From the NCBI GenBank assembly GCA_050949565.1, contig JBMNFY010000017.1, positions 1,728,001-1,792,000 on the forward strand: 64,000 nucleotides of DNA. Direction: 5' to 3'. This DNA is from Kiritimatiellia bacterium (GTDB lineage Bacteria > Verrucomicrobiota > Kiritimatiellia > RFP12 > UBA1067). A model generated the notes under the pieces. It searched no databases. It saw only the letters and a list, made by a program, of their open reading frames with translations, and was not told the origin of the DNA. The position numbers and the translations under genes were made by a program. Positions 39,825 to 52,313 of this stretch are shown one piece after another (within the stretch, counting starts at the first letter, position 1; every line of letters starts with the position of its first letter).

Positions 39825-41267
39825 GAAGGACTTTCCCCAAAAAACCGGGGGCAATTATATCTAAGTCCTTGAAAACAAAGGGGATGCGTCTCTGACGGGC
39901 GTGCCTGAAAGTGAAAAAGTGGTTTTCCTCCGCCGGTTCTGCCAAAATGGCGGTTCAACCAAAAACCGGAAAGGAAAACCGACGTGAATCATAGCGCAAC
40001 GGCGTTCAAAGCGCGAGAGCAACTCAAGAATTTTTTGGGGGAACTTTCCCCCCGGTTTTCCAAGCCGCTCGGCAAGTTCGTGGGCGACATGGTCTACGGG
40101 ATACAGGCGTCGCAGGACGTGAAGCTCAGCCGGATCGCCCGCGCGCTCGACGAGCCGATATCGATGAAGAAACTGGAGGACAGGCTGAGCCGGATGCTCG
40201 GGAGCGAGGGCATCGAGCAGGGGATTTCCGACGCTGTCGCCCGTCTGGGCTCGCGTCACGTCCATCAGGACACGCTGATCGTCATCGACCCGACCGACAT
40301 CCGTAAGCTGTACGCGAAGAAGATGGAATATCTCGCCCGCGTCCGGGACGGGAGCACGGGGGAGATCGGCAACGGATACAGCGCCTGCCTGGCGGTCGCC
40401 TGCGAGAGCGGCGGCCGCCGGATCACGCCGTTGCACATGCGGCTGTGGTCGAGCGAGGCGGAGGGCTTCATCAGCCAGAACGACGAGGTGCTCGGCGTCA
40501 TCGACCAGATCAGCTCCCGCGCGAAGAAGCGCGGCATCTACGTCATCGACCGCGGAGGCGACGGAGACTGGCTGTTCGACGGCCTGGACCGGCGCAAACT
40601 GGACTACATCGTGCGCCTCGTGGGCAACCGCAACCTGCTCCACGGCCGGCGGACCGCGCTGGCCGAAGAACTGGCGGCATCCTGCCCCATGAAGCACATC
40701 GAGATCGTCACGAGGGAGACGGGGGACGGGGTGAAAAGCTATAAGCTGGAGTTCGGCGCCATGACCGTCGCCCTGCCGCAGAGGCCCGACAAGCCCCTGC
40801 GCATGGTCGTGGTGAAGGGGTTCGGCGAGCGGCCGATGCTCCTGCTGACCACGCTGGCCGGGACGACGTCGCGCAAGTCCCTGTGGCAGGTCGTCGAGGG
40901 CTATCTGACGCGGTGGCGCGTCGAGGACGCGATCCGCTTCGTCAAGCAGAGCTACAACCTCGAGGACATCCGGGTCCTGACGTACCGGCGCCTGAAAAAC
41001 ATGGTCGCTCTGCTGCTGGCCGTCATCTACTTCAACTGCGTCTGGCTGGCCGGACGGCTGCGCTGCGAGATCCTGACGACCAACATCACCCACGCCGCCA
41101 AGCGCATCTACGGCGTGGCCGAGTTCCTCCACTACGCCGTCGCCGACGGCCTCGGGAGGCTCTTCACGCGCCACGGGAAATGGTACGGCTACAAGCCGCC
41201 AGACCCCGAATCAAACCCGCTCGGACTGGTCTTTCTGGAATGACCAGATTTTTTGGGGAAAGTCCAC
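39825..41267 (+). mobile_element. IS4-superfamily insertion sequence
   Basis: Terminal IRs GGACTTTCCCCAAAAAA / TTTTTTGGGGAAAGTCC; 7-bp target duplication TTGACCT at 39818-39824 and 41268-41274. Confidence 0.9.
39984..41243 (+). CDS. DDE transposase (IS4-like)
   Basis: VIDPTD, VIDRGGD and YLTRWRVEDAIRFVKQ (YREK-like) motifs. Confidence 0.92.
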   Translation: MNHSATAFKAREQLKNFLGELSPRFSKPLGKFVGDMVYGIQASQDVKLSRIARALDEPISMKKLEDRLSRMLGSEGIEQGISDAVARLGSRHVHQDTLIVIDPTDIRKLYAKKMEYLARVRDGSTGEIGNGYSACLAVACESGGRRITPLHMRLWSSEAEGFISQNDEVLGVIDQISSRAKKRGIYVIDRGGDGDWLFDGLDRRKLDYIVRLVGNRNLLHGRRTALAEELAASCPMKHIEIVTRETGDGVKSYKLEFGAMTVALPQRPDKPLRMVVVKGFGERPMLLLTTLAGTTSRKSLWQVVEGYLTRWRVEDAIRFVKQSYNLEDIRVLTYRRLKNMVALLLAVIYFNCVWLAGRLRCEILTTNITHAAKRIYGVAEFLHYAVADGLGRLFTRHGKWYGYKPPDPESNPLGLVFLE

Positions 41268-41366: not shown

Positions 41367-44300
41367 ATGAATACGAGACTGGCTGGATTGATGGCTATCT
41401 GTGTGGGTGCGCTGTCGCTTCACGCGCAAACATTGCGCACGGCGGGATCGCTTGCGGTGGACTTGGATGCCGCCACGATTACGGCGGCGGATGGCGACGC
41501 AGTGACTACATGGGCGAACAACGGCACGCTAGGCGCATCGTTTGACGCGCTCGCGGGCACGACCGGTGCGGCGTTCACCAACAACCTGCATGGCCGGAAA
41601 GCGATCCTCTTCGACGGCACCGCGCAGAGCGTGCTGGTCGGTCCGACGGCCCCCTCCTCCTTGACCGGCGGAAGTGTGTGGTCGATTGAGGCATGGGTGT
41701 GGGTTCCGTCGCTGCCGCCCGCGAAATCGGTCTACCTCTCGTGGACTGAGGACGAGACGGTGGGGACCGGCTGGCAGGGTTGGGTTAGGCTGATGATGCG
41801 CTACGATGTCCACGGTGTGCAGATTGATTTTCGCGGCGGTGCGCTGGGTTCGCTTTACGGCACGCCCGCGCCCGGTCACTGGCATCACATTGCCGTGACC
41901 CGGCCGCTCCTGCGATGATACATACCTTTTATGTGGATGGCGCATGCTGCGGCCGGCTCGGACAGAGTAGTGATATCAAGCTGCAGGCAGACAAGCCGCT
42001 GGCGCTTGGCGGCGTGCTGCGGGCCGGAACGATGGCCACCTACACGAACTTCTTTGCGGGCGCGCTCTCGCGGGTGCGCGTCCACACCGGCCCGCTGAGC
42101 GAGGACGACGTGCGCCACAACTACCTGGCCGATGTCCCGTCCTACCGCGCGGGCGAGCTACGCGGTCTGGAACGGCGGCGCCGGCGACTGGAACGATTCC
42201 TGCTTTCTGGCAGGACGGCCGGGTCGGCGCGGGCCTCGACGCGGTGCGCATCCAGAGGCGGCTCGCTGACCGTGACCAATGACGATGTGATCGGCCAGCA
42301 GTCTGGCGATGTTGGATCTGCGTACTGGAACGATCGAGTTGACCACCTCCGCCGCGCGTATCGACAGCCGCACGCCTTTCCTCGTGGGCCGCGAAAGCGG
42401 TCAGGCGGCCGCGATCAACGTGTCGAGCGGCGTGCTCCACGTTGTGTCGAGCGGCAATCCTGCGCATACCTCGACCTCGGCGTGAACGGCGCGCTGTCGA
42501 CGCTGGAAGTGGGCGGCTCGGGTACTGCGGCCACGCTCTACACCGCGCAGCTCCGCGCATTCGCGGAGGGCACCAGCGACATCCGCGTCATGAAAGGCGG
42601 CGTGATCGAAATGGACGCGCTGTTCGCGGACGCGCTGAGCGTCCCCTCGGTGAGCGTGGCGGGCGGCACCTTCCGCAACCGGACGGGCGGCACCATGGGG
42701 TACTTCTTCAATGTGCCGCAGGTGAACGTCTCCACGGACGGCGTGACCTTCGACACCCCCGCCGGAGCTGTCATGGCCGTTTCCGCGCCGCTGCTGCACG
42801 ATGCGTCCGGGCCTGATGCAGGCGGTGGCCTGCGCAAAATCGGGGGCGGGACGCTGGTCCTCAGCGGCACGAACACCTACGCCGGCGCGACCTCGGTCGA
42901 GGCTGGTACCTTGGTGCTTGCGCCCCGGCTGCTGGACGGACTGGTCTACCGGCTGGACACCTCCGCCGACGCGCTCGATACCCTCACGCTCGATGCCTCG
43001 TCCAACGTGCTCGCATGGGCCGATTGCAGCGGCGCGGGCTTTGTCTTCACGACCAACAAAACCACGATATGTCCGGTCTACGACCCCGCGCTCTTCGGCG
43101 GTCGCGGCGGCCTGCGTTTCAGTCGCGATGCCACCTGCTGCCGGCTGGCAACCGACCGGGCGGCCAAGATCCAGACGGTCTTCGCGGTGGTCGCGCCGGC
43201 GGCCGGCAACGACATCGGCGGCCTCTGGGGGCTCTCAGGGGACGATTACGGCATCCGCTTCAACGCGACCTCCGTGCAATACACCGGTAACAACAACGAC
43301 TTCTCCGCCTCTGGCGCGGTCTATACGAACGGAGCATTCGGCAACGGCTTCACCGTTGGTCAGCCGTTTGTACTGACCGCTGTCGCTGATCGCCCTCAGA
43401 CCTGGGTCACGGCGATCGGCGATTACTGGGGCAATCTTGAACACCGGCGCGCCTACCGCGGCGACATCGCCGAGATCCTGACGTACGACCGGCGACTGGA
43501 TGACCGCGAGCGCCAGGAGATCGCGCAGTATCTCATGGCGAAGTGGCTGGGCACGGTGTCGGCACCCGCGCTTTCCGATCAACTCCTGCCGCACGCCAAT
43601 GCGTTGACGGTCGGCGCGGGTGCGTCGGTGGATCTGCACGGATCCTCCGCGACGCTCTCCATGCTCCAAGGTGCCGGCGTGATCGGCAACGGGCAGCCCG
43701 CGACCTCGTTGCTGACGATCGGTGCGGATGATGCCGAATTCGCGTTCGCCGGTTCTATCACTGGTAACGTGGCCGTCAGCAAGATCGGCGCGGGGAACGC
43801 TGTCTTCGCCGGACAGAACACGCTCAGCGGTCCGCTCACGATCGAGGCCGGCACGCTCTCGCTCGCTCCGGCGTCTCGTCGGTCACGGGCTTGGTCTACC
43901 GGCTGGACGCCTCGGAACCTGAGACGCTGACCTTCCTCGCCGACGGCTCGAACGTGACCGCCTGGGCGGATGCCGAGGGCTCCGGCTTTGTGTTCGCGAC
44001 CACCAACGATCTCAACTGCCCGGTCTATGACGCCGCGCTCTTCGGCGGTCGTGGCGGACTCCACTTCGGTCGCGGCGGCGCGCGCGGACGCATGCTCGGT
44101 TCGGGCGTGACCAACGCCCAGACGGTTTTCGTGGTCAACATGATCCGCGACCAAAGCAATAGCGACAGCGGCCTATGGGGCTCGGAAGGGCAGGACAGCG
44201 GACTCCGCATCGGCAACACCACGTGGTACTGGCCCGGCAACAAAGACGATTTCCACTTCCGTGACAACGGCGGACTGGTTGCCGTCAACGGTATTGTCTC

Positions 44301-44976
44301 TAATGCCACGGTGACGGTCGGCCAGATCCATCTCGTCACCTCGGTCAACGGTGCGCGCCAAAGTTTCCGGCCCGCGATCGGCGATTATTGGGGTTCTTCT
44401 CAGTATACGTCCCGCTATTATCGCGGCGACGTGGCCGAGATCTTGGTGTTCGACCGTGTCCTCACCACGTTGGAACGCCAGACCGTCGAGGCTGCGTTAA
44501 TGGCTAAATGGTTCCCGACCGACAGCGGTAGCGTACTGCCGTCGAGCGCGGCGGTTACGGTGCGGGCGGGCGGAACGCTGGACTTGGCCGGCGGCGCGTT
44601 CACCGTAACTTCGCTGGCCGGCGGCGGTTGCGTCTCGAACGGCACACTGACGGTGACCGGAACCGTCGCACCGGATGGCGTGTTGAGTGTCACGGCTGCA
44701 GTGCAGTTTACCGGGACTTTGGAGCTGAATGTCAGGGCGGACGGCACTTGCGACAGTCTGGCGGTGGCAGGTGCGCTGGACCTCTCAGGTCTGACGCTGA
44801 CCCTGAACCTGCCGGCTGAGCCGCCGACCGTCGGGTCGTACACGCTGATCTCCGCTGCGGGCGGGATTCAGGGCACTTTCGAGCAGGCGTCGGTTCCCAA
44901 GCCTTGGGGCTTGATCATGGAACCGACCGCCGTACGTCTCACCTATGCGAGCGGAACGTTCATGTTACTGAAGTGA
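41367..44976 (+). CDS. Large secreted protein with LamG-like domains and autotransporter-associated beta-strand repeats, broken by several frameshifts
   Basis: Signal peptide; WHHIAVT (LamG); GLRKIGGGTLVLSGTNTYAGATSVEAGTL repeats; two LVYRLD domains; C-terminus GTFMLLK. Pieces in ORFs 41367-41918, 41915-43930 and 43891-44976. Confidence 0.75.
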
Positions 44977-45003: not shown

Positions 45004-46227
45004 ATGATGAGAGTGAACAGACGGCAATTTATGGAAGGGGCGGCGGCGTTCGGGCTGGCCGCAGGGATGGGCCGGGTGGCCGAAGGGGCAACGCCTACGG
45101 CATTCTCGGATTGGCGCGAGGGCCTGCTCGACATCCATCACATCAGCACGGGGCGGGGCGAATCGACGTTTGTCATCTGTCCAGACGGAACGACCATGCT
45201 GATTGATGCGGGCGACATGAGCGATGGACGCCCGGACGAGACGGTGCTGCCGCGCCTCCCGAACGCGAGCCGGACACCGGGCGAATGGATCGCCGCCTAT
45301 GTGGAACGTTTTTCCCGTCCGTTGAACCACAAAACGCCCCGTTTGGATTACGTGACATTGACTCACTTCCATTCGGACCATATCGGTTGTCGCCAGAACG
45401 AGGTCCGGGAGAAGAACGGTTATGCGCTTTCCGGCATCACGGAGGTCGCGGAGCATGTGGCCATCGGGACGCTCGTTGACCGCGCTTACCCTGATTACGC
45501 GTTTCCTACCCGCGAGGCGGTTGCGGCGAGCAATCCGAAATTCTTCAAGGACTATCTCGCGTTCGTCGAGCACCAGCGGACCAAGCGCGGAACGGTCATG
45601 GAGGCGTTCGACGTGGGCAGCCGCAAACAGTTCGCGTTGAAGCGCGCGCCGGACCGCTTCCCCAGCTTTATCGTGCGCAACATTGCCGCGAACGGCAAGG
45701 TGGGCGAGAAGACAGTTTTCACGCATGAGCAGCGTCCGGACGAGAACATGTGTTGTTCCGTGGTGACACTGTCCTACGGCGCGTTCACCTATTATACGGG
45801 CGGCGACTGCAGTGGTTCGCCTGCCAGACGCGATGTGGAGACACCCATAGGGGAAGCGGTCGGTCGCGTGAATGCCATGAGCTTGAACCATCACGGGTGT
45901 GATGACGGTACGAATGCCGCTATTCTTGCGGCGTTGCGTCCGCAAATCATGGTGATTCCGGTCTGGGACATGTGGCATCCGCAAACGAATGCCTTCACCC
46001 GGATGACAGACAAGACGATTTATCCCGACGACCGGATGATCTTTGCGACAGGGCTACACGAAAAGGCCAAGGCTCGTCTCGGTGAAGCGGCAGCGCTGAT
46101 CCGGCCTCAAGGGCATGTCGTCATCCGCGTGAGCGAAGGCGGCGCACGCTTCCGCGTGTTTGTGCTGGATCCGGGAGACTTTTCCGTGGTCGACGCTACA
46201 GACGAGTTGCACGCATCGAAGAAGTGA
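45004..46227 (+). CDS. Tat-signal metallo-beta-lactamase-fold (ComEC-like) hydrolase
   Basis: VNRRQFMEG signal; MLIDAG, THFHSDHIG, GGD and NHHG motifs. Confidence 0.85.
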   Translation: MMRVNRRQFMEGAAAFGLAAGMGRVAEGATPTAFSDWREGLLDIHHISTGRGESTFVICPDGTTMLIDAGDMSDGRPDETVLPRLPNASRTPGEWIAAYVERFSRPLNHKTPRLDYVTLTHFHSDHIGCRQNEVREKNGYALSGITEVAEHVAIGTLVDRAYPDYAFPTREAVAASNPKFFKDYLAFVEHQRTKRGTVMEAFDVGSRKQFALKRAPDRFPSFIVRNIAANGKVGEKTVFTHEQRPDENMCCSVVTLSYGAFTYYTGGDCSGSPARRDVETPIGEAVGRVNAMSLNHHGCDDGTNAAILAALRPQIMVIPVWDMWHPQTNAFTRMTDKTIYPDDRMIFATGLHEKAKARLGEAAALIRPQGHVVIRVSEGGARFRVFVLDPGDFSVVDATDELHASKK

Positions 46228-46254
46228 GTGGCGAGTAGAGGAGGGGGCCAGGAC

Positions 46255-48516
46255 ATGCGTTTGAAAAGAGCTTGGATGCGATGGATTGCCGCAATTCCCG
46301 TTGCGGTGTGCTGCCTTGACGCGCAAGGTCGGGGCGAGTCGTGGGTGCCCAAACCTCCGCCACCGCCGCCGGTTGAGACGTTGACGAACGCGGCGCGTTA
46401 TATCGAGTGGAAGTGGCGGATGGATGTCACCGACCCGCAGACGGGCGTGAACGCCAAGACGGCCACGGCATCTGTGCGTGAAATGGCGCAACGGCTGGAG
46501 CCGACGGAGCCTTGGTGCTGTGTCAAGGCCAAGCTGTACGCCTATCTGTGCGACAATCTGGCGATCGGTATGTCCGAGCATGATTGGTTCCCGGCCTTTG
46601 CGGTCTGGAACCGGTATGCGCGTCCGGTAAGTCCGGTCGTCGGACGGCGCAACCAGAAGATTTTCGCGCGCTACAATGCGGACGAGCAAGCCCGTATGAA
46701 TGCGGGTAACGCATCCGGCAAGTGGACGTTCTGGAAGGACTTCGACCATTCAGTGCCGGAATGGGAAAAGAATCTCGCCCTCGGCTTTCCCGGCATGGAC
46801 CGTCGCCTACGGGACAACTGGCGTGACGAACCGCGCTATCACGCGGTCTCGGAGGTCTCGCAGGCGACACTGCGGCTGATCGACCGCCTTATCGCCTACG
46901 GCGAGGCGCATGCGAACAAAGACGCTCTGCGGGTGCGGCGTCAAGTCGCGTCTCTGCGCCGCTTGCGCGCCGGTCCGCCGCAGACGGCACACGACGCGAT
47001 GATGTTCATCTACCTGTATTTCTTCTGCAGCGAACATCTCGACGTCATCCAGTGTCGCAGCCTGTCGATCATCGATGTCGTCCTGTGGCCCTACTATCAG
47101 GCCGACCTCGCGGCGGGCCGGACGACTGAGGCCGAGTTCCGCGAGCAGTTCAAGCATTTCCTCTGGCAGTGGGGGTCGATCGATAACTACTGGGGGCAGC
47201 CGGTCACGATGGGCGGCACGAAGGCCGACGGCACAACCGAGTACAATCCGCTCTCTTACATTATCCTTGATGTCATGGACGAATGTGCGCTGCCGACGCC
47301 AAAGTTTCACCTCAAGATCGCGGACAACACGCCGCGGGGGATCTTGCTGAAGGCGCTCGATATGGTGCGCCGTCACCGTCCGATCTCCTTCTGCGGCGAA
47401 GGGCCGATCCGACGCATCCTGACACACTACGGCTACACCGAGGACGAGGCTCGTCGCTTCTATACCAAGGGGTGCTACGAGTTCTGCCCCCCAGAAGGGG
47501 CGAACGGCACGGGGGTCGGTTACGTGAGCCTGGTGAAGCCAATTGAGGAACTGTTGGCGGCGGCAGCGCGTAACGAATTTTCGGCAGAGACCTATGAAGA
47601 TTTCGAAAAGGCCTACTTGCAGGCTGTTGTCGCCAACATGGTGGAGGCGACCGAAATCGCCAAGGCCTTTGAGTGCCATCTCGACGACGTGAATCCGGCG
47701 AACCTGACGACTTTAGCGGTCGAGAATGCCGTCAAGACGGGCAAGGACGCGTTTGCCAACGGTGCTTCGCGCGGCAACAACACGTCGATCCTGACGGTCG
47801 GGCTGGGAACGGCGGTCGATGCGTTGATGGCCGTACGGTCGATCGTTTACGAGCGCCGTGAAATGTCTTTGGTCAAACTGGGCGCGGTCATGCGTGACAA
47901 TTGGGCGGGTCATGAGGAACTCCGGCTGAGGATGCTGCGTTCGAAATGCAAGTGGGGGACGAACGATCCCCTCGCGAATGCGGCGGCGGGACGCATTTCC
48001 AAGGCACTCTCCCGGGCTGTGAATGGCAAGCCGAATTCCCGCGACGGACGGTTTTTCGTCAGCGGGCACTGCGCCCGTCAGTTCGTGCTGCAGGGCGAGC
48101 GTATAGGCGCAACGCCGGATGGCCGCAAGGCCGGGGAGGAGGTTTCCAAGAACCTCTCACCCACCATGGGGGCCGACACGGAGGGCGTCACGGCACTGGT
48201 TCTCTCCTTGGGTTCGCTTGATTCAATCGATTGGCCCGGCGATTTTCCGTTGGATGTGATGATGCTCCCCTACACCGTTTCCGGCGACGAGGGGTTGGAG
48301 GCGATGGCCGTCATTGTCCACGAGTTCTTTAACCGCGGCGGAGCCATGATTCAGTTCAATATCGTCGATGCGGAAGAGCTTTTGGACGCGCAGGCTCATC
48401 CAGAGAAATACGAGAACCTCCAGATTCGCGTATGCGGGTGGAACGTCCGCTGGAACGATTTGTCCAAGTCCGAGCAGGATGCCTATATCCTGCGTGCGCG
48501 TGCGCTGGCATTTTAA
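46255..48516 (+). CDS. Glycyl radical enzyme (PFL family) with signal-peptide-like N-terminus
   Basis: KGCYE Cys loop, GATPDGRKAG, QFNIVD and glycine loop IRVCGW; GAGGAGG RBS. Confidence 0.88.
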   Translation: MRLKRAWMRWIAAIPVAVCCLDAQGRGESWVPKPPPPPPVETLTNAARYIEWKWRMDVTDPQTGVNAKTATASVREMAQRLEPTEPWCCVKAKLYAYLCDNLAIGMSEHDWFPAFAVWNRYARPVSPVVGRRNQKIFARYNADEQARMNAGNASGKWTFWKDFDHSVPEWEKNLALGFPGMDRRLRDNWRDEPRYHAVSEVSQATLRLIDRLIAYGEAHANKDALRVRRQVASLRRLRAGPPQTAHDAMMFIYLYFFCSEHLDVIQCRSLSIIDVVLWPYYQADLAAGRTTEAEFREQFKHFLWQWGSIDNYWGQPVTMGGTKADGTTEYNPLSYIILDVMDECALPTPKFHLKIADNTPRGILLKALDMVRRHRPISFCGEGPIRRILTHYGYTEDEARRFYTKGCYEFCPPEGANGTGVGYVSLVKPIEELLAAAARNEFSAETYEDFEKAYLQAVVANMVEATEIAKAFECHLDDVNPANLTTLAVENAVKTGKDAFANGASRGNNTSILTVGLGTAVDALMAVRSIVYERREMSLVKLGAVMRDNWAGHEELRLRMLRSKCKWGTNDPLANAAAGRISKALSRAVNGKPNSRDGRFFVSGHCARQFVLQGERIGATPDGRKAGEEVSKNLSPTMGADTEGVTALVLSLGSLDSIDWPGDFPLDVMMLPYTVSGDEGLEAMAVIVHEFFNRGGAMIQFNIVDAEELLDAQAHPEKYENLQIRVCGWNVRWNDLSKSEQDAYILRARALAF

Positions 48517-48528
48517 AAGGGGGAAACA

Positions 48529-49371
48529 ATGAATAGACGTGCGTTTTGCATGGGAGCGGGAGTCGTCGCGGCGATGCCGTTCTATTCTTGGGCGAAGGTT
48601 GGCGGACGTCCGATGAAGGTACCGCTGATGCTGGATACGAAGCGGATGTCGATTCATGACGGACCGGGCATCCGCACGACGTTCTTCGTGAAGGGGTGCC
48701 CCTTGAAGTGTATCTGGTGCCATAATCCGGAATCGATCAGCACAAAGCCACAGTGGGCGCGTTTTCAGCATCTTTGCCGGAAATGCCCGAAGGGCTGCAC
48801 GATGGACGAGGCGACATGTCCGACCCGTGCGTTGAAGCACTATGGCACGGAGATGTCAATGGACGAGATAGTTGCCAAGGCACTCGAGGATAAGCCATTT
48901 TACGAGGCGTCGGGCGGAGGCGTGACGCTCTCGGGCGGCGAACCTCTTTTCTTCTGGGAGTGGACGGCCGAGCTTTTTAAACGCCTCAAGGCGGCGGGAC
49001 TCCACACCAGCCTCGACACTTCGCTCTATGCGCCGCCTGCTGCGATTGAGGCCATGCTGCCGGTCGTGGATATGTGGCTTCCCGATTACAAGGCAGACGA
49101 TGATGCGCTGCACCGGAAGTACACGGGCGTCCCGAACAAGCTCATCAAGGCAAATCTCGAAAGCCTCGTTGCGGCGAAGGCCAAGCTTGAGGTGCGCTGC
49201 CTCGTCGTGCCAGGCTGTACGGACGGCGAAGACATCCGATCGCGCCATCGGTACCTGAACTCGATTGGCATCACGGATAATCGCATCGTTGACCTTGAGT
49301 ACCATGATTACGCGCGCTCGAAATACCTCGCGCTTGGGCTTGAGGACACGATGCCCCCCATGTCCAAATGA
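48529..49371 (+). CDS. Glycyl-radical-enzyme activating radical SAM protein with Tat-like signal
   Basis: HDGPGIRTT, GCPLKCIWCHNPE (CxxxCxxC) and GVTLSGGEP motifs; N-terminus MNRRAFCMG. Confidence 0.9.
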   Translation: MNRRAFCMGAGVVAAMPFYSWAKVGGRPMKVPLMLDTKRMSIHDGPGIRTTFFVKGCPLKCIWCHNPESISTKPQWARFQHLCRKCPKGCTMDEATCPTRALKHYGTEMSMDEIVAKALEDKPFYEASGGGVTLSGGEPLFFWEWTAELFKRLKAAGLHTSLDTSLYAPPAAIEAMLPVVDMWLPDYKADDDALHRKYTGVPNKLIKANLESLVAAKAKLEVRCLVVPGCTDGEDIRSRHRYLNSIGITDNRIVDLEYHDYARSKYLALGLEDTMPPMSK

Positions 49372-49394: not shown

Positions 49395-49565
49395 CCCTCA
49401 CCCCGGCCCTCTCCCAGCGGGAGAGGGTGAAACAACCGAGCGGTGCTTTTACTCTCACGATTGCGAGCCACTGCGTGGTCGCAATAAGAGAGGTTGACTC
49501 GCGACCCACGACTTGCGACTTGCGGCTAGAACCCTACCCTCAGGCAACTAAGGGACAGGTGTTTA
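49395..49565. repeat. REP-like hairpin plus dispersed ~100-bp repeat (inverted copy at ~4522-4615)
   Basis: CCCTCTCCC-AGC-GGGAGAGGG hairpin; CTTTTACTCTCACGATTGCGAGCCAC...GGTCGCAATAAGAGAGGTTGAC shared with the 4.5 kb cluster. Confidence 0.8.
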
Positions 49566-52129: not shown

Positions 52130-52313
52130 GGCGGCTCGTGGGGACACTCGCCCTCCATTGCTTGCTCCGGCGGCTCGTGGGGACACTCGCCCTCCATTGC
52201 TTGCTCCGGCGGCTCGTGGGGACACTCGCCCTCCATTGCTTGCTCCGGCGGCTCGTGGGGACACTCGCCCTCCATTGCTTGCTCCGGCGGCTCGTGGGGA
52301 CACTCGCCCTCCA
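52130..52313. repeat. 39-bp tandem repeat (4 full units plus a 28-bp core) of a REP-like unit
   Basis: GGCGGCTCGTGGGGACACTCGCCCTCCA-TTGCTTGCTCC at 52130, 52169, 52208, 52247 and 52286; inverted single copy at ~4640-4668. Confidence 0.92.

Follow-up and report, generated by a model that had tools for sequence, protein, structure and literature searches.

The DNA analysed here is a window of 64,000 nucleotides (positions 1,728,001 to 1,792,000 of contig JBMNFY010000017.1, assembly GCA_050949565.1) from the genome of a Kiritimatiellia bacterium. At positions 45004-49371, three co-oriented genes on the plus strand encode a metallo-beta-lactamase (MBL)-fold hydrolase, a glycyl radical enzyme (GRE) and a GRE-activating radical S-adenosylmethionine (SAM) enzyme, hereafter the activase (Table 1). 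GREs and their radical-SAM activases are treated as strictly cytoplasmic proteins, dependent on SAM and on a low-potential electron donor and in need of shielding from oxygen. The GRE and the activase of the window both begin with a predicted export signal, and the comparative analysis described below points to what is probably a periplasmic, carbohydrate-directed GRE and its activase, re-targeted from the cytoplasm in one order of Kiritimatiellae. The frame of the GRE opens at GTG 46228 and contains an alternative start at ATG 46255; the latter is the likely start since the Shine-Dalgarno-like sequence GGAGGGGG is located 7 nt upstream. The activase gene begins 12 nt past the stop codon of the GRE, and its AAGGGGG ribosome-binding site, pointed out in an earlier note made from the letters of this DNA, is present with a spacer of 5 nt. 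Re-reading of the sequence also confirmed the positions of the three open reading frames (ORFs) and the N-termini quoted in that note.

Table 1. Features of the three-gene locus, in window coordinates.
Feature	Position	Strand	Remarks
MBL-fold hydrolase gene	45004..46227	+	407 aa
Twin-arginine translocation (Tat)-type signal of MBL hydrolase	45004-45090	+	about residues 1-29
Shine-Dalgarno-like GGAGGGGG	46240..46247	+	7 nt ahead of GRE ATG 46255; read from sequence
GRE gene	46255..48516	+	753 aa from ATG 46255; Pfam, AlphaFold, Foldseek
GRE general secretory (Sec)-type signal peptide	46255..46329	+	residues 1-25; predicted cleavage between AQG and RGE
GRE mature N-terminus and proline-rich linker RGESWVPKPPPPPPVE	46330..46377	+	conserved, signal-bearing clade only
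GRE Cys loop GCYE	47470..47481	+	residues 406-409 (from Met at 46255); thiyl-radical Cys and eliminase-type GCxE Glu
GRE glycyl radical loop RVCGW	48427..48441	+	residues 725-729 (from Met at 46255)
Shine-Dalgarno AAGGGGG	48517..48523	+	directly after GRE stop codon, 5 nt ahead of activase ATG
GRE-activating radical-SAM enzyme gene	48529..49371	+	280 aa; Pfam, NCBIfam
Putative activase Tat-type signal	48529..48594	+	residues 1-22, NRRAF...; predicted cleavage between SWA and K
In-frame internal ATG (Met29) of activase	48613..48615	+	possible start of short signal-less isoform, window gene only; not conserved in family
CX3CX2C radical-SAM cluster motif	48697..48720	+	activase C57, C61, C64

The GRE is recognised by the Pfam models PFL-like (8.2e-57, 193.7 bits) and Gly_radical (2.7e-20, 73.3 bits), both above cut-off. 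Its AlphaFold model (pLDDT 93.3, pTM 0.91) displays the GRE barrel fold and matches about 40 solved GRE chains in Foldseek with TMq values of 0.79-0.84; residues 1-38 are not part of the globular domain and form a low-confidence helix (residues 2-21) followed by coil. Of the 119 full-length GRE homologues, 116 retain the catalytic motifs GCYE and RVCGW, and C407, R725, G728 and W729 are invariant in the GRE alignment (A1). The remark of the earlier note that these loops are not the CC motif of PFL is correct, no PFL-type CC being present. PFL proper was rejected as an assignment because of GCYE in place of CC and a TIGR01255 score of 66.8 bits against a cut-off of 994. The named GRE eliminases (HypD, CutC, HpfG/HpsG, PFL2-3) were rejected as well since the window GRE scores far below the NCBIfam cut-off of every named GRE equivalog, the best being TIGR01774 with 221.9 bits against 678.2; the HypD model gives 214.2 bits against 1100. 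The window GRE has the GCxE motif yet falls in no named equivalog.

The activase matches the Pfam families Radical_SAM and Fer4_12, and its NCBIfam TIGR02494 score (240.5 bits, cut-off 174.35) assigns it to the GRE-activating radical-SAM enzymes. The cluster cysteines C57, C61 and C64 are invariant in the activase alignment (A2). A two-cluster, ferredoxin-like insert is typical of non-PFL GRE activases. No Pfam match to a Fer4 dicluster was obtained in the window activase, and at about columns 117-141 of A2 the activases of the Kiritimatiellae clade, exported and cytoplasmic alike, are devoid of this insert of ~25 aa, only 3-4 cysteines being left in the region; the relatives from Lentisphaeria and Clostridia retain it.

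Export signals were called by means of a rule-based classifier (second version) and by eye, on the 120 closest database clusters of each protein. The GRE set spans 57-100% identity to the window protein. A hydrophobic presequence of 10-47 aa (median 20), unrelated in sequence from one homologue to the next, is found in 118 of its members and ends directly before a conserved RG[EQ]xW-PKPPxPP motif; the other two are truncated gene calls. In the 118 homologues anchored on this motif, position -3 is occupied by A91/V19/S6/G1/T1 and position -1 by G96/A21/S1. Because a variable hydrophobic stretch with a kept -3/-1 site precedes a conserved motif, the presequence was interpreted as a cleavable signal peptide. 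The conservation of the N-terminal extensions, a check proposed in the earlier note, was found in their physico-chemistry and cleavage site, while their sequence varies. Residues 1-25 of the window GRE display the positive n-region, the h-region of 7-15 residues and the small residues at -3 and -1 that characterise Sec-type signals. Among the close homologues, 117 of 120 are signal-positive by rule. In a control set of 109 distant full-length GRE representatives (<=38% identity), 4 are positive, one of these four being a glycoside hydrolase family 43 (GH43) fusion with a true signal. The RGESW-PKPP linker block is absent from signal-less relatives, and in the window GRE the stretch from the presequence to the RGESW...YIEWKWR block, which is conserved, contains no methionine. 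The ranking of the GRE signal as the weakest of the three, given in the earlier note, is not upheld in the family context, in which the homologues carry textbook Sec signals. A role of the RGE following the signal as a general sorting tag was considered and rejected: within the own genome it is found behind a signal on the window GRE only, the other matches being shadow ORFs of repeat elements.

The activase set covers 72-100% identity. An N-terminal extension of at least 20 aa is present in 115 of the 120 homologues, and in 113 the motif [STND..]R[RKQ]xF precedes a run of moderate hydrophobicity and an A-x-G/A site; the rule classifier was likewise positive for 113. The Tat consensus consists of an S/T-R-R-x-F-L-K-like motif, a moderately hydrophobic h-region and an AxA site, and the window protein begins with N-R-R-A-F-C-M and proceeds to SWA. 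The export signal proposed by the earlier note (twin arginine, hydrophobic stretch, SWA site) is consistent with this set, the extension and its motif being common to the homologues. As an own-genome control, 27 radical-SAM ORFs were inspected, and only the window activase has a twin-arginine-type N-terminus. Compared to signal-less orthologues, whose start matches residue 29, the signal is an add-on. The codon at the Met29-equivalent site was surveyed in both groups: it is ATG or GTG in 18 of 24 signal-less activase loci, and in the 40 Tat-type loci ATG occurs in 6, GTG in 3 and TTG in 1, the remaining 30 having a non-start codon. Since a non-start codon is present in these 30 loci, the family does not initiate at this site; an extension of at least 20 aa without methionine at the position of Met29 is also found in 90 of the 120 homologues. 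A true start downstream at ATG 48613, the objection foreseen in the earlier note, fails on this count, and a conserved internal start giving two isoforms is rejected for the family by the same survey.

The signal types of the two proteins co-vary. A pairing table of 31 loci from 30 genomes, in which both N-termini are readable, was curated by eye. The GREs of L062 and L100 were set to Tat-type, the second activase of L078 was added, L082, whose 1179-aa frame has an unclear N-terminus, was omitted, and pairs were also counted at L034, where the genes lie on opposite strands, and at L095, where 1.4 kb separates them; the rules without curation had produced 15/6/2/2/3 plus one error. In the curated table, a Sec-type GRE is accompanied by a Tat-type activase at 16 loci and by a signal-less activase at 0. 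A Tat-type GRE adjoins a signal-less activase at 9 loci and a Tat-type activase at 2, and a GRE devoid of signal is found at 2 loci with a Tat-type activase and at 2 others with a signal-less one. A Sec substrate crosses the membrane unfolded, hence without radical, and a Sec-type GRE would therefore need an exported activase. A Tat substrate can fold, and presumably be activated, before export, and the combination of a Tat-type GRE with a signal-less activase makes sense for this reason. Both arrangements occur inside single genera, for example that of the window (G000 versus G003 and G005). The activase tree requires at least 9 changes in the signal state of the activase, and well-supported branches force at least 3 of them. 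The independent contrasts, 6 on the whole tree and 2 when only well-supported branches are considered, are all in the expected direction.

A few loci depart from the simple gene pair. Genome G008 contains an array (L033, G008:C170, 7765-15776) in which three or four signal-bearing GRE paralogues from different subclades lie in tandem and no activase adjoins them, and the genome's single Tat-type activase is located on another contig (L108), which suggests that one activase serves several exported GREs. At L049 (G642:C14) and L097 (G518), where a signal-less GRE adjoins a Tat-type activase, the GRE may be co-exported by means of the activase signal or may recently have lost its own. The activase located 3' of the Sec-type GRE of L078 (G480:C108) has an arginine in place of the second cysteine of CX3CX2C (GCPLRRIWC), which could be due to an error in sequencing or mean that this activase is inactivated.

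The host genome (4.66 Mb, 21 contigs, 92% complete) encodes four GREs, namely a true PFL (contig C4), two further paralogues and the window GRE. No N-terminal signal is present on the other three or on their activases, one of the two non-PFL paralogues adjoining a signal-less activase. The Tat machinery is encoded (TatC, 178.6 bits, and two TatA/B genes), and many RR signals similar in style to that of the activase are borne by typical periplasmic oxidoreductases. A microcompartment encapsulation peptide was rejected as the cause of the extensions, 0 matches to the bacterial microcompartment (BMC) shell family PF00936 being found in this genome. The GRE and activase homologues carry Kiritimatiellae as source name. 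Orthologous activases (E<=1e-70) were identified in 66 of 319 genomes of the host's order and in 8 of 401 genomes of a phylum-wide sample, all eight belonging to the host's order. The DNA of the locus occurs in sequencing runs from anaerobic digesters, biogas plants, landfill and sludge.

The link to carbohydrates is provided by domain fusions and by gene neighbourhoods. Fusions were surveyed in a library of 50%-identity representatives, the order being signal, carbohydrate-enzyme domain, GRE. The fused domain is a SASA esterase in P0241, a 3-keto-disaccharide hydrolase in P0243, an AXE1 esterase in P0245 and P0246, GH2 in P0248, GH43 in P0289 (truncated) and GH78 in P0325 (31% identity), and P0244 and P0079 carry unknown domains. 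No clear internal transmembrane segment was detected in these fusions, only P0079 showing a marginal hydrophobic window near residue 398. In the genomes, GH16-GRE and 3-keto-disaccharide-hydrolase-GRE fusions adjoin Tat-type activases. Unfused GRE copies are found next to GH88 with DUF4861, GH20, GH141, GH29, GH2, GH32, a GDSL esterase, KduI, a glucuronyl esterase and an SSF transporter. From these fusions and neighbours, and from the structural kinship with PflD and the dehydratases described below, the substrate is most likely a carbohydrate, for example at a ring carbon of a glycan-derived sugar, and the reaction an elimination of the GCxE type. The extracytoplasmic glycyl-radical system suggested by the earlier note gains support from these data: the predicted signals are conserved, their types co-vary between the two proteins, and GRE domains are found behind signal-bearing carbohydrate-enzyme domains.

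The third gene of the locus has a different standing. The MBL hydrolase scores 20.5 bits with Pfam Lactamase_B, below the cut-off of 22.7, and is weakly similar to the MBL domains of Pce/CbpE and ComEC. By rule, 98 of the 120 homologues examined are signal-positive, and more are by eye (Kiritimatiellae, Planctomycetes, Bacteroidota and others). It adjoins the GRE only in the window species and its 99% twin; no MBL gene was found next to the GRE in the other genera examined, in which the neighbours are unrelated. The earlier note had grouped this protein with the GRE and the activase as carriers of export signals. Its Tat-type signal appears real, in a family that is commonly exported, but its membership in the GRE system does not stand and the MBL hydrolase was rejected as a conserved third component. 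Judged from its homologues, it would be an ordinary exported hydrolase rather than a conserved partner of the GRE. Separately, a signal-less Lactamase_B_2 protein, unrelated to this MBL hydrolase, adjoins the cytoplasmic system of G044.

Among characterised enzymes, the PflD/YbiW-type GREs (8ID0, 8YJO, 8ID7) include the closest solved sequence (8ID0, E 4e-53), with Foldseek TMq values of 0.83-0.84. The GCxE Cys loop of PflD, with its Cys and Glu, aligns with GCYE of the window GRE, and so do the RVxG Gly loops of the two proteins. These enzymes act on the sugar-derived ring of 1,5-anhydrohexitol-6-phosphates, the function of 8ID0 being taken from a 2026 GRE review (PMC13450708). PflD differs by its low identity to the window GRE (~23%), its cytoplasmic location without signal peptide and its phosphorylated substrates, and the window GRE possesses in addition the conserved N-terminal block RGESW-PKPP...YIEWKWR. 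The GRE eliminases 1,2-propanediol dehydratase (5I2G), HypD (6VXC), glycerol dehydratase (1R8W) and CutC share with the window GRE the GCxE motif and a dedicated activase and constitute its top Foldseek matches (E about 1e-37 to 1e-33, TMq 0.79-0.84). They are only 19-22% identical to it, act on small molecules and are cytoplasmic or enclosed in microcompartments, whereas export signals and fusions to carbohydrate enzymes occur in the window family. PFL and PflA belong to the same superfamily, and the window activase aligns with the PflA structures 3C8F and 8FO0 (E about 6e-28), but PFL has adjacent cysteines instead of GCYE and PflA has no signal. Signal-less members of the family itself, from Lentisphaeria/Victivallales and Clostridia, are 30-47% identical and display the same motifs and an adjoining activase. 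Unlike in the window, neither their GRE nor their activase has a signal, the proteins starting at the conserved domain; their neighbours encode AraC regulators, SASA and AXE1-like esterases and melibiase.

A further comparison can be made with Tat-exported Fe-S and cofactor enzymes, some of which carry signal-less partners along by 'hitchhiker' co-export, as in the subunits of hydrogenase and DMSO reductase. The likeness lies in those GRE/activase loci in which one partner only has a Tat signal, and the difference in the pair RK, which outnumbers RR in the activase family. To our knowledge no radical-SAM enzyme is among the Tat substrates, and none was found in the literature searched in full text. 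No description of an exported GRE or activase was found there either, subscription journals being outside the coverage, and the main text of the 2026 review contains no mention of periplasm, signal peptide, secreted, extracellular or Tat (PMC13450708). The exported, probably carbohydrate-directed form of the GRE/activase system is therefore probably new.

The mechanism that we propose can be summarized as follows. The GRE, provided with a cleavable Sec-type signal, would be translocated in an unfolded state and without a radical. The activase, which needs its Fe-S clusters, would be exported folded by way of its Tat-type signal and would generate the glycyl radical of the GRE once both are in the anoxic periplasm. 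In the second arrangement, folding of the Tat-type GRE would precede its export through Tat, and so, probably, would its activation, or else it would take the activase along. The chemistry would be that of the GCxE enzymes: the thiyl radical would abstract hydrogen, a ketyl would form with the assistance of Glu, and the beta-substituent would be lost. The activase may be exported with a reduced cluster and SAM preloaded and work once. Such chemistry is reported to have an in-vitro precedent in PflA. The systems with a Tat-type GRE would escape the problem of supplying SAM and electrons to the periplasm, because their activation would precede export. Combined, these elements lead to a joint reading that we advance tentatively, at somewhat less than even confidence: Sec-type GREs would be activated outside by a one-shot, preloaded activase exported through Tat, while in sister systems Tat would export the GRE after its activation, or in complex with the activase. 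The enzyme, sometimes in one polypeptide with an esterase or a glycosidase, would perform a radical elimination on glycans or oligosaccharides, that is, an oxygen-independent and non-hydrolytic removal of a substituent, or cleavage, beside a ring carbon.

A number of points weigh against a periplasmic system. Export, as well as cleavage, periplasmic activation and the substrate class, is deduced from sequence alone, and the signals rest on our own rules and inspection, not on SignalP or TatFind. The twin-basic pair of the activase homologues is RR in 37 and RK only in 76 (regular expression), the window activase has no match to Pfam TAT_signal at E<=0.01, and the MBL hydrolase reaches 17.6 bits with this model, below the cut-off of 22.7. 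The window activase taken individually has an in-frame ATG at residue 29 and may also give rise to a cytoplasmic short isoform. Four of the 31 pairs (Tat with Tat, none with Tat) misfit a simple two-route scheme unless co-export is invoked; moreover, the pairing rests on related genomes, and the independent contrasts are too few (sign test p>=0.5). A source that would provide SAM or low-potential electrons in the periplasm is not known to us. No conserved third gene that could act as SAM carrier or reductant emerged from the clustering of 381 ORFs at 64 loci, in which only the GRE and activase clusters were conserved; one extra recurrent cluster (21 ORFs, 20 loci) was judged to be a shadow ORF on the opposite strand over the activase or GRE. 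A genome scan for exported Fe-S and multi-haem donors returned generic candidates only (Rnf-like, polyferredoxin-like, multi-haem), none of them linked to the locus. The RNA-library contigs presented below may include carried-over DNA.

The supply problem speaks for an alternative in which the GRE is exported but radical-inactive outside, with a binding or structural role, or is active only in the Tat-type systems, the activase signal at Sec-type loci serving some other end. The signal-less state of the activase in 9 of 11 Tat-type GRE loci, which fits activation before export, speaks for it in addition. However, the catalytic Gly and the Cys/Glu loop are retained in 116 of 119 homologues that are mostly of the Sec type, the radical-SAM Cys triad is invariant in A2, and all 16 Sec-type GRE loci keep an adjoining Tat-type activase, which would be hard to explain if the two proteins never met. 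This alternative is considered rather unlikely.

The hydrophobic segments might also constitute a membrane tether on the cytoplasmic side, or a targeting device for an internal membrane-bounded compartment in this bacterium of the Planctomycetes-Verrucomicrobia-Chlamydiae (PVC) group, instead of an export signal. SAM and reductant would then be at hand; the presequence of the window GRE is in fact atypical, containing Trp, Arg and Cys-Cys, and the unusual conservation of RGExW-PKPP after the cleavage site could mark an interface motif. The features of the segments are nevertheless those of signals, with a positive n-region giving an N-in orientation, h-regions of about 10-15 residues that are too short for a stable anchor and a -3/-1 pattern in 118 of 118 anchored homologues. 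GRE domains are found behind signal-bearing SASA, AXE1, GH2, GH16 and GH43 domains with no transmembrane segment between, and the activase motif resembles the host's many RR signals on periplasmic oxidoreductases. The genome has no BMC shell genes, and we know of no internal compartment in the class Kiritimatiellae. A tether or compartment is accordingly regarded as improbable. Finally, an annotation artefact, with starts located downstream (e.g. ATG 48613), untranslated upstream stretches and an ordinary cytoplasmic GRE, is very hard to maintain: the ATG at residue 29 of the window activase coincides exactly with the start point of signal-less orthologues and 5 of 120 database gene calls begin at or near it, but against this stand the codon survey and the extended homologues mentioned above, the lack of a methionine ahead of a GRE block that is conserved at the protein level, strong Shine-Dalgarno sites at the upstream starts, and the improbability that untranslated DNA would preserve a twin-basic motif together with a hydrophobic stretch and an AxA-type site at 57-80% identity.

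Contigs from four RNA libraries, belonging to four studies, span all three genes and both junctions. A dispersed repeat of ~100 nt is located just 3' of the activase, at 49427-49530 of the window. Among the matches listed in the own genome (202 first-look candidates), 40 were scored, at 79-96% identity. The depth of the RNA-library contigs is 5-10x higher at this repeat, and many loose contig ends are found there. No Rfam family matches it; it could represent a REP/MITE-like element or a family of small RNAs. Upstream of the locus, three consecutive plus-strand ORFs (183, 671 and 361 aa) at 41367-44976 contain Laminin_G_3 and PATR repeats, with a signal peptide on the first; they resemble the pieces of a single large autotransporter-like or adhesin gene split by frame changes, or else a tandem family. 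A DDE transposase is encoded just upstream of them, at 39984-41243. Downstream, at 52130-52313 between an LPG_synthase_TM gene and mutS, a 39-bp unit is perfectly repeated in tandem (4.7 copies) and is followed by 3.2 copies of a 9-bp unit, with all three frames open through the repeat. An identical 236-aa open frame is present in at least 13 copies in the own genome (e.g. C6:200717, C7:191926, C10:305108, ten on C17, C20:123057), which indicates a multi-copy mobile element.

If the proposed location and activity of the GRE and activase are correct, radical enzymology would extend to the cell envelope, and the manner in which SAM and electrons reach the periplasm, or are carried into it, would become a question in its own right. 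The co-variation of Sec and Tat signals between the enzyme and its activase constitutes a natural experiment in this respect. The GRE would represent a new class of carbohydrate-active enzyme, and the system as a whole would provide a radical, non-hydrolytic tool for anaerobic glycan breakdown in digesters, guts and sediments.

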